Source of the DNA: a phage
Reading direction: 5' to 3' (one strand)
Sequence record: PQ400055.1
DNA length: 64,000 nt
Position 1 is the first letter of the stretch. Every line of letters starts with the position of its first letter. Both the position numbers and the translations under genes were made by a program. The notes below the pieces were generated by a model, which was not told where the DNA came from, searched no databases, and saw only the letters and a program-made list of their open reading frames with translations. This document shows positions 3,777 through 5,822 of this stretch, in pieces.

Positions 3777-5524
3777 GCGTGATTGAAGGGATTAACGCAA
3801 TGGCGACGGATGAACACCCGCTACATTTAGCGCATCCGTCTACACTAGAAACTAAAATTGATTCAAACGGCATTGAATGGATTTTATCAAAGCATGATGA
3901 TAAATGGTATCCTAAAAAGTTTTCTGACTATCTGAAATTAAACAGACCGCAGAAAATAAGGATGCAAAGCACTGATCCAACAAATTATAAGTTCTTTAAA
4001 GATAGTGACAATATTCGCACGCGGTATATGCGATTAAAGAACTTGCGAAGGGCGAATATTAAAACTCAGTATACCCCTGAAATGATTGCAGAGTGGAAAC
4101 GATGCCGTAAAGATATTGTGTATTTTGCCGAAACCTATTGCGCAATTACACACATCGACTACGGTACAATCAAAGTACAATTGCGTGATTATCAGAAAGA
4201 TATGCTTAAGATCATGCATGAAAACCGCATGAGTGCACATAAACTCAGTCGTCAGCTAGGGAAAACTACCGCTGTAGCAATATTCCTTGCTCACTACGTT
4301 TGTTTTAATAAAGACAAAGCGGTAGGTATACTGGCACACAAAGGATCAATGGCAGTTGAGGTTCTAGAACGTACTAAACAAGCAATTGAACTATTACCAG
4401 ACTTCTTACAGCCAGGTATTGTTGAATGGAACAAGAAATCAATTGTTCTTGAAAACGGTTCAAGTATTGGTGCTTATGCGTCGTCTCCTGATGCCGTGCG
4501 TGGTAACTCGTTCTCGTTTATCTACATTGACGAATGCGTTAGCGGCTTGACCAAAGTTACACTACGTGATAAACTAACAGGTGAGATTAAAGAATACACT
4601 ATGTTAGAGGTTAAGATGATGGCTATTCAGCAAAAGTTGAATAAAATTAAAGAGTTATTACTGCCGCACGCAAAAAATCCAAACTTAACTCGCGGTTGGG
4701 TTCCTGGCGTAACTATGGATATGTTGGAAGAATACAAAGAGTTTTTCGACACACATTTTCATAAAACCGAATCCATGAGAGAGTTTATCGCATGTGTAAC
4801 AAATGATATTCTGGATCGTCCCGTTTGCTCTACGAAAGGTTGTGGTTGTCGTGTGGAATTAAGCAAGAATGGTCCATACTATAAGGATAAATGCCATAAC
4901 TACTGCACAGAAAAATTGCCTGGGCGCTTAGGGAAAATATCATCAAAAATGGTTATCTTCCGTCGTTTTGAGTGTCCAGAATGTGGGATGTATGCTGTTA
5001 AAAATGAAGGTTATCTTTGCCGTAAATGTGGTTACGCCAAACAAGGCGAGGCAATGAAACGTCTATACGTCGAAAACGGCGATGAAATGCGCAAAAAGTG
5101 CAACGGTAAGAAAACACCCGAACAAAGGGCTAAACAGTCCGAGCAAGTTAAACAGCGTATTCTGAATGGTGAATTTACTCCTAAGACGACTAACCGTCTT
5201 AATCACAATCGCATTAAGTATGATGGTCATAACTTTCGTAGCTCATGGGAACTATCTTTCTATAAAGATATGAAAGCTAAAGGCGTTAATATTGAATATG
5301 AAACGCTTCGTGTTACATACAAATTTAAAGGAAAGAATCACGTTTATATTACGGACTTCGTAGATCACGATAATAAGATCGTTTATGAAGTTAAGCCTAA
5401 GCGACTTGTTGAAGACCCAAAAACAATGGCGAAAGAACACGCCGCTATAGAATGGTGTAAAGAAAACGGATATACTTTCGAATATATTCACGAGGATTAT
5501 ATTAATGAACTTTTGGAATCTTGA
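3773..5524 (+). CDS. 17: terminase large subunit gp17 N-terminal extein (to about 4534) fused in frame to intein N-terminus plus zinc-ribbon/nuclease domain; ends at TGA
   Basis: N-terminal 254 aa align with T4 gp17 up to Walker B (FIYIDE vs IYIED). Then [10 protein letters not shown] (intein block-A-like), four CxxC pairs, and a D..EVK nuclease-like C-terminus before stop at 5522. Confidence 0.85.
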
Positions 5525-5822
5525 CGGATTCGAAGTTCTCACCGAAAACGGTTTTAAAGATTTTGATGGCATAAAAGAAACATTTGGTATGATCTGGAAA
5601 CTAACATTTAGTGATGGATCATACCTTGAATGCTCAGAAAGCCATAAATTAAAATCAAGTGACGGCTTTTTTATTGAAGCCGATGATATAGAGGCTGGAT
5701 TCGTTACGTCTTCCGGCCTTACTGTCATTAGTAAAGATTATGTTGGTGAAGACTTTTTATACGATCTAACTAATGTTGCCGATGGCAACCATTACACTAC
5801 AAACAATGTAGAATCTCACAAT
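4535..5822 (+). mobile_element. intein-like element (Hint domain plus zinc-ribbon and PD-(D/E)xK-like endonuclease) inserted in terL; reading frame broken internally
   Basis: Starts with Cys codon TGC at 4535 (CVSGLTKV), ends ..VESHN at 5822, followed by +1 Cys (CAFIQNW) matching T4 gp17 CAFIPNF. Blocks B (SESHKL), F and G ([20 protein letters not shown]) present. Length 1288 nt is not a multiple of 3; frame shifts between 5451 and 5524. Confidence 0.8.

Follow-up and report, generated by a model that had tools for sequence, protein, structure and literature searches.

The large terminase gene (terL) described here lies within a 64,000-nucleotide stretch of phage DNA (sequence record PQ400055.1), the whole of which is referred to as the window. 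The window contains the T4-like structural and packaging module of a Krischvirus (RB49-like) and over terL it shares 99.8% identity with Escherichia phage kaaroe. The gene is encoded by two overlapping open reading frames (ORFs): ORF1 (3773..5524; 583 aa, 68 kDa), which ends with the TGA stop codon at 5522..5524, and ORF2 (5505..6884; 459 aa, 52 kDa), whose frame is shifted by +1 from that of ORF1. Alignment with the uninterrupted, intein-less terL of phage RB49 (1824 nt) places an insert at exactly 4535..5822, with a length of 1288 nt (3n+1). The insert begins with a TGC codon (Cys1) at 4535..4537, ends with CAC-AAT (His-Asn) and is directly followed by a second TGC codon (Cys+1) at 5823..5825. 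In-silico splicing, with residues 255-583 of ORF1 and 1-106 of ORF2 removed, gives a protein of 607 aa in which 607/607 residues are identical to RB49 gp17. [quoted passage not shown]

The ORF2 frame is closed by a TAG at 5448..5450 and its earliest canonical start is the ATG at 5505..5507. This ATG is preceded by a GAGGA Shine-Dalgarno (SD) sequence, and a GAGGA located 5-11 nt upstream is found for 6 of the 1195 plus-strand ATGs of the window. No T4 late promoter (TATAAATA) is present 5' of ORF2; the sole copy in the region 2501-7200 is at 6880, at the 3' end of ORF2 and upstream of gene 18. A first-pass annotation made from the nucleotide sequence had described ORF1 as the TerL N-extein followed by the N-terminal part of an intein and a nuclease, with the rest of the Hint domain and the C-extein in a +1 frame open from 5451, an ATG at 5505 with GAGGA at an 8-nt spacer, and an insert of 3n+1. 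These statements are all correct, since the frames, the GAGGA-N8-ATG and the exact insert were found as described, and the Pfam matches of ORF1, the content of ORF2 and the RB49 alignment agree with them.

Table. Features of the split terL locus of the window, with the own-frame ratio of nonsynonymous to synonymous polymorphism (pN/pS) given as pooled pairwise values over the insert-bearing copies.
Feature	Position	Strand	pN/pS	Description
TerL N-extein (ORF1 aa 1-254)	3773..4534	+	0.026	Walker A (SRQLGKT); ends with Walker B and catalytic Glu (IYIDE)
IntN core (~27 aa)	4535..4615	+	0.055	Cys1 and motif N1/block A; 3' boundary approximate
Linker module (ORF1-tail aa 28-132)	4616..4930	+	0.083	Helical segment and Cys-rich stretch, fused in frame to IntN
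Zn-ribbon and PD-(D/E)xK nuclease module (ORF1-tail aa 133-329)	4931..5521	+	0.086	Homologous to free-standing 199-aa phage endonucleases
Shine-Dalgarno GAGGA for ORF2	5492..5496	+		8-nt spacer to ATG; within the conserved -(H/T)ED- codons of the nuclease
ORF2 start / ORF1 end overlap (20 nt)	5505..5524	+		0 variable sites among 7 phages
IntC (106 aa)	5505..5822	+	0.046	Block B His (CSESH), blocks F/G, terminal His-Asn
TerL C-extein (Cys+1 to stop)	5823..6884	+	0.053	ATPase C-motif (TTT) and RNaseH-like nuclease domain

The N-extein encoded by ORF1 matches Pfam Terminase_6N (E=1.4e-25) and is identical to residues 1-254 of RB49 gp17. The IntN core that follows contains residues C, T, V, T and R that are invariant in 7 homologues, and exhibits 68-74% identity to the IntN of phages in which terL is divided into three ORFs. 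The AlphaFold2 (AF2) model of the ORF1 tail features a beta-hairpin at tail residues 7-22, within the IntN part, and PDB searches with IntN alone returned no meaningful match. Past the ~27-aa IntN, the chain continues for 302 further residues of linker and nuclease to the ORF1 stop. The linker is modelled as helices at residues 23-90 followed by a low-confidence Cys-rich region at 96-143, and this Cys-rich stretch is probably Zn-binding. The linker module is collinear with ORF1 of Shewanella phage Thanatos-2, is missing from the three-ORF relatives, and among GenBank phages is found only in 7 Krischvirus records and Thanatos-2.

The next module of ORF1 is presumed from its sequence to be a homing endonuclease of the PD-(D/E)xK type. 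It exhibits 47% identity over aa 7-199 to the endonuclease of phage PspYZU05 (P0003) and matches the endonuclease family PHROG 15427 at 1e-48. Pfam analysis identified Tn7_TnsA-like_N (PF08722; 34.5 bits against a cut-off of 26.5) and Phage_endo_I (29.0 bits, 0.1 below the 29.1 cut-off). The catalytic set E239, D274 and E285-x-K287 is invariant in 12 homologues. The top structural homologs provided by Foldseek were TnsA (1T0F) and I-Bth0305I (3R3P), with a probability of 1.00, a weak E-value of ~5e-3 and 14-16% identity. The module has no start of its own, no internal SD-ATG and no stop codon separating the nuclease from IntN.

The IntC encoded at the start of ORF2 has no match in Pfam, PHROGs or NCBIfam, and standard annotation is therefore blind to the TerL intein. 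A phmmer search of the PDB with IntC identified 6DSL chain B (E=4.5e-13). This chain is CatC, the C-terminal piece of an atypically split intein built as a consensus of the AceL-TerL/GOS-TerL family, and the Met of ORF2 aligns to the start of the CatC fragment. The AF2 model of IntC (pLDDT 83) is likewise most similar to 6DSL_B by Foldseek (TM-score 0.77), and the 35 PDB chains matched at E<=1e-3 are inteins and one bacterial intein-like domain. A fused IntN+IntC profile built from 7 homologues matches CatC (E=1.9e-19) and aligns with VidaL (6VGV, E=2.6e-5) continuously across the junction, which indicates that IntN and IntC are collinear with one complete Hint domain. Sets of 7 and of 23 homologues show no variation in the CSESH motif (H47 of ORF2) or the ...ESHN/C junction. 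None of the splicing residues (Cys1, block B His, His-Asn and Cys+1) varies, although the homologues compared differ from one another at 30-54% of positions. With the nucleophile Cys1, the intein motifs, the Hint fold and the exact insertion, the element encoded by ORF1 and ORF2 has the sequence features of a class 1 intein. The IntC-related clusters number 510, and in 93 of the best 150 the match begins within residue 20 of the protein, as expected of separate IntC-extein ORFs. The remainder of ORF2 matches Pfam Terminase_6N (C-part) and Terminase_6C and is 100% identical to the C-part of RB49 gp17.

Taken together, the terL of this Krischvirus very probably contains a naturally split class 1 intein that is broken just after motif N1 and that has a nuclease fused to its N-fragment. 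The first-pass annotation had offered three readings of the frame break: a split intein with trans-splicing halves, recoding, and a sequencing indel. The first is strongly supported at the level of sequence by the homology to CatC, the conserved SD and Met and the invariant catalytic residues; the other two are contradicted by the diverged relatives and by the seven known copies of the insert described below. We infer that the products of ORF1 and ORF2 trans-splice. Both ORFs would be translated from one late mRNA, with ORF2 starting independently or, probably, coupled to ORF1. The short IntN hairpin would dock onto the nearly complete Hint fold of IntC, allowing Cys1, the block B His, the terminal His-Asn and Cys+1 to perform standard class 1 splicing in trans. 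The sequence ...IYIDE would be joined to CAFIQNW... (junction peptide ...FIYIDECAFIQNW...), giving a TerL of 607 aa that is the same as RB49 gp17 and completing the ATPase core from Walker B to the C-motif. The by-product would be a non-covalent complex of IntN-nuclease and IntC (38.6 + 11.9 kDa), and its nuclease probably cuts the intein-less terL alleles of co-infecting phages, leading to homing. The putative homing target in RB49 terL is ...ATCTACATTGATGAA/TGCGCATTTATTCAA..., with the slash marking the insertion point, and the intein-plus allele is the GAC variant of this sequence.

Several points weigh against this interpretation. The IntN is not a free short peptide and carries a C-terminal extension of ~300 aa, and trans-splicing with so extended an IntN lacks precedent in the AceL-/GOS-/Cat-TerL family. 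Placement in that family by sequence rests on IntC. In the window, the ORF2 frame also stays open over the 18 codons that precede the ATG, and a +1 shift is therefore physically possible in the window sequence.

It is also conceivable that no covalent splicing occurs and that the intein halves hold the two pieces of TerL together as a non-covalent two-chain enzyme, similar to the NrdA of phage Aeh1, which is split by a homing endonuclease gene (HEG). T4-like phages do encode genes-in-pieces that work without ligation (PMC2677866, PMC10448857), and splicing in the window phage is predicted from its sequence. This arrangement is nonetheless improbable, as residues that are needed only for the chemistry of splicing have stayed invariant at the divergence given above. 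The break also falls immediately behind the Walker B Glu, inside the ATPase core, where, judging from what is known of T4 gp17, the presence of 38.6 + 11.9 kDa would probably be disruptive. Family relatives do splice: in vitro, the fragments of AceL-, GOS- and Cat-TerL come together and undergo trans-splicing (PMC11766414).

The diverged relatives of the locus bear on whether the two frames could be joined during translation. A metagenomic T4-like contig (L008; 58-71% nucleotide identity) encodes the same pair of ORFs, likewise overlapping by 20 nt, and its ORF2 frame has a TAA directly 5' of the ATG and a second TAA five codons further upstream. Thanatos-2 also encodes terL in two ORFs, with a collinear ORF1 tail (42% aa identity, E=2e-85) and an ORF2 in the -1 frame that has 3 open codons before its ATG. 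A three-ORF terL is found in PspYZU05, phiR1-RT/TG1, HY03, SG1 and others (the L009-L011 loci among them), in the order TerL-N with an IntN of ~41-42 aa, a free-standing 199-aa endonuclease and IntC-TerL-C; here the pieces share one frame (shift 0) and are parted by stop codons. The IntC ORF thus has a relative frame of +1 in both the window and L008 and of -1 in Thanatos-2, while in the three-ORF phages the frame is 0 but interrupted by stops. A GAGGA 8 nt 5' of the Met is conserved at one alignment column in the window, L008, Thanatos-2, PspYZU05, phiR1-RT and HY03. No slippery sequence, shift direction or RNA structure is common to the window, L008, Thanatos-2 and the three-ORF relatives. 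On these sequence comparisons, the split is ancient and conserved and is not bridgeable by a common recoding.

A programmed +1 frameshift within 5505..5524 would produce a precursor of ~1040 aa, from which a nuclease-bearing intein would splice in cis. The openness of the window frame from 5451 would permit this, and contiguous metagenomic TerL-like proteins (P0054 and P0059) carry an apparent in-frame nuclease at the same atypical intein position, which makes such a precursor a plausible intein. The CTT-T of the window resembles the P-site slip of prfB, and like the prfB +1 frameshift site the window has CTT-T and T-CTT-GAC near a UGA with an SD-like GAGGA upstream. It differs from prfB in that the in-frame context is TCT-TGA rather than CTT-TGA, the SD spacing is wrong and the motif is not kept in homologues. 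In prfB, stimulation comes from an SD located ~3 nt from the slip site; the GAGGA of the window is 14 nt from CTT, which fits initiation and not stimulation of this type. The first-pass annotation had proposed recoding at CTT-TTG-G or TCT-TGA-C, and these motifs are missing in L008, where AAT-CTT-GAA is found in place of CTT-TTG-G and the two TAA codons close the frame. Thanatos-2 would need a -1 shift within its 3 open codons, and the three-ORF relatives have in-frame stops and a separate nuclease ORF. The RNA at the junction of the window has no significant structure (z -1.0 to -1.5), and the feature that is conserved is GAGGA-N8-ATG, not a slippery motif. As the diverged relatives share no slip site, shift direction or RNA structure, a programmed frameshift is considered very improbable.

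A hairpin was observed in Thanatos-2 (L012 2185..2240) and the three-ORF phages (L009-L011 2486..2541) that pairs the SD of the IntC ORF (GGAGGACUUC) with the EVL codons downstream (GAAGUCCU). It has a folding free energy (dG) of -13 to -16 kcal/mol and z-scores of -3.1 to -3.8, and suggests translational coupling to the nuclease ORF in these phages. In the window (5490..5545) and L008 the equivalent hairpin has a shifted position and lacks significance (z -1.0 and -0.25).

The whole insert is also present in six further independently sequenced phages (kaaroe, vB_Eco_SAP, vB_Eco_TB34, vB_EcoM_G2494, phiS and JK32), for which the same two overlapping ORFs are annotated. The seven copies were assembled independently, and their sources include Denmark, Germany, China and Ireland. 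Approximately 5% of the insert positions are variable among them, with 0 indels in the insert and a junction that is base-for-base invariant. The pN/pS values of the table are low in the own frame of each segment, and reading in the wrong frame raises them to 1.0 for IntC and 3.65 for the ORF1 part, which argues that both polypeptides are expressed and selected as annotated. A nucleotide search located terL at one place per record, a single terL per genome being in part general knowledge of T4-like genomes, and the carriers are all plaque-forming isolates.

These copies bear directly on the possibility, raised in part by the first-pass annotation, that an indel in the T-run, introduced in sequencing or assembly, accounts for the frame break, or that terL is decaying to a pseudogene. 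The insert length of 3n+1, the TTTT run inside the overlap and the G2494 GenBank record, in which the locus is given only as a misc_feature 'similar to large terminase', would fit such an explanation. It is practically excluded, as seven assemblies agree at the junction without insert indels despite the variable sites, the diverged L008 is built alike, purifying selection is strong in both frames, and the phages form plaques with terL at one place. Removal at the RNA level by a group I or II intron carrying a HEG, as in the large terminase of phage ICP1, has a negligible probability: HEG-containing introns do interrupt the terL of other phages (PMC10448857), but no Rfam family matches 3500..7100 at E<=1, the insert codes for a Hint fold and has intein splice residues exactly at its two ends, and purifying selection acts at the protein level over the whole insert.

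The vB_Eco_TB34 record (L003, locus 3596; ~6868 of the window) contains one additional T close to the 3' end of terL, which changes the last residues and lets the annotated ORF run on as far as the beginning of gene 18. This insertion is absent from the other copies and may be a sequencing error in the record.

For the naturally split intein with its N-fused nuclease, a further and more doubtful suggestion is that the one-sided break is itself a functional design and no frozen accident, in which the nuclease is produced solely as the tail of the TerL-N precursor and is freed only on trans-splicing, as a complex with IntC. If this unlikely reading were true, trans-splicing would assemble the terminase ATPase and a two-chain intein-endonuclease at the same moment, and homing, perhaps together with the onset of packaging, would be coupled to the equimolar late synthesis of both halves. 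The arrangement would then also represent a living intermediate between a contiguous nuclease-bearing intein and a three-ORF gene, in a tractable E. coli phage.

Of about 67 Krischvirus records that are nearly identical, 7 contain the insert, which also occurs sporadically in other genera at the same site; overall, it is found in 82/2542 phage records having a T4-type TerL. That a minority of near-identical Krischviruses have the insert would be explained by a homing nuclease, which would spread it sporadically, and homing is probably driven by the action of the nuclease on intein-less terL. The intein-bearing Krischvirus alleles share silent differences from the intein-less RB49 at 4531, and also 40 and 121 nt upstream. 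At 4531, 4 nt upstream of the insertion, the window has GAC-GAA/TGC and RB49 has GAT-GAA/TGC. These silent differences beside the insertion site are compatible with a co-conversion tract or a change that protects from cleavage.

Two other groups of phages exhibit TerL pieces in a different arrangement. The terL ORF of Vibrio phage vB_VmeM-32 (L013, KU160494.1; 1102..3216) starts as an apparent IntC ending in ...NNIASHN/TTVTAILLAHY, which from its sequence looks like a second split at the Walker A/P-loop site (GK/T). The same ORF also contains a contiguous nuclease-less mini-intein at IYVDE/C, the site used in the window. The TerL N-part of vB_VmeM-32 must lie elsewhere in the record, as the 1.1 kb upstream is non-coding. 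Campylobacter phage CPX (L014, NC_016562.1; 2498..3826) and 40 other Campylobacter phage records encode an IntC-TerL-C ORF (MYEVLTPNGF...SHN/CAFIDKW). The upstream neighbour of this ORF is the gp13 neck protein gene and not a TerL N-part, and the terL halves of these phages therefore appear to be dispersed.

The terL pieces are annotated inconsistently in records MN850574, OZ034687, OX001802, MK327935, PP449093, MK962753 and OR896832, where they are labelled 'hypothetical protein', 'DNA packaging enzyme', two 'terminase large subunit' genes or misc_feature 'similar to large terminase'. None of these seven GenBank records mentions an intein. The GoldenSnicker record is linearised at the start of IntC. 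The practical consequence is that phages with an intein-bearing terL are inconsistently annotated in GenBank, including as a pseudogene-like misc_feature.

According to a 2024 paper, coliphages had no reported inteins (PMC11162368). The intein described here interrupts the packaging ATPase, an essential enzyme, in E. coli phages that form plaques (kaaroe, JK32, G2494, phiS and others, and T4-type phages such as HY03). In protein engineering, naturally split inteins whose N-half is very short are prized as tools, and the native biology of AceL-TerL and GOS-TerL has gone unexamined since the characterised members came from metagenomic sequence. Because the hosts of this intein are plaque-forming E. 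coli phages, trans-splicing in vivo, its timing relative to packaging, and homing in mixed infections are directly testable. The locus is solid and experimentally useful, and it is conceptually unsurprising to intein specialists.

The type of intein and its fractured-gene context are already known, the intein belonging to the AceL-/GOS-/Cat-TerL family. The atypically split inteins AceL-TerL, GOS-TerL and Cat are reportedly the work of Thiel in 2014, Bachmann and Mootz in 2015, and Stevens in 2018. As in these inteins, the host protein is a phage large terminase, the intein is of class 1 with Cys1 and Cys+1, the break falls just after motif N1, and the long IntC contains all motifs except N1 (104-115 aa in the known members, 106 aa in the window). 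The known members are metagenomic and have a free IntN of 25-37 aa, whereas the intein of the window is carried by culturable E. coli phages and its IntN runs on into a linker and nuclease of ~300 aa.

Similar divided loci were described by Dassa in 2009 as 'fractured genes', among them a gp17-like terminase from Lake Gatun that is fractured after motif N1 (PMC2677866). The 3' ends of the endonuclease genes in that study overlap the IntC starts by 6-69 bp, which was read as the invader supplying a downstream initiator codon (PMC2677866). The window resembles these loci in that an essential phage gene is encoded in two split-intein ORFs with endonuclease coding sequence between them, and in that the 3' end of the endonuclease overlaps the start of the IntC ORF, by 20 nt and so within the range of 6-69 bp. 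It differs in having no free-standing endonuclease gene, as the nuclease is the tail of ORF1. The canonical three-ORF fractured form is met in PspYZU05, phiR1-RT/TG1, HY03, SG1 and others.

The bifunctional inteins such as PI-SceI also combine a Hint domain and a nuclease within a single insertion that interrupts an essential enzyme at a conserved catalytic site, and share the sporadic distribution that homing would give. Unlike in these inteins, the nuclease of the window is of the PD-(D/E)xK type (TnsA/Vsr-like) and not LAGLIDADG or HNH, it follows motif N1 instead of lying between blocks B and F, and the chain is broken on its C-terminal side. The nuclease module is most similar in structure to I-Bth0305I, with its Vsr-like PD-(D/E)xK fold, and to the N-domain of TnsA, and has the invariant E...D...ExK residues; its Foldseek E-value is weak and its identity to them low, and it is a predicted nuclease.

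Contiguous nuclease-less inteins are found at the terL site of the window in vB_VmeM-32, P0022 and P0019. P0054 and P0059 are contiguous at a different terL site and have an apparent in-frame GIY-YIG nuclease (...IYKITN...YFGYH...) ~25 residues after Cys1. Since this GIY-YIG nuclease is located there too, the position after the hairpin seems to be the regular nuclease-insertion point of the family, and from the sequences different nuclease types appear to use the same atypical insertion point. Two or three inteins within one TerL were observed in P0019, P0059 and P0094.

What is unusual at this locus is the fusion of the nuclease in frame to IntN, with the gene broken on one side of the nuclease only. 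This "half-fractured" form is found among GenBank phages in the seven Krischvirus records and Thanatos-2, and in addition in one metagenomic contig, L008. The architectures seen are the contiguous mini-intein, the contiguous intein with an in-frame nuclease, the nuclease on IntN only, and the fully fractured gene, and they bear on the origin of split inteins. As judged from these sequences, the intein family seems to range in a continuum between contiguous forms and fully fractured ones.

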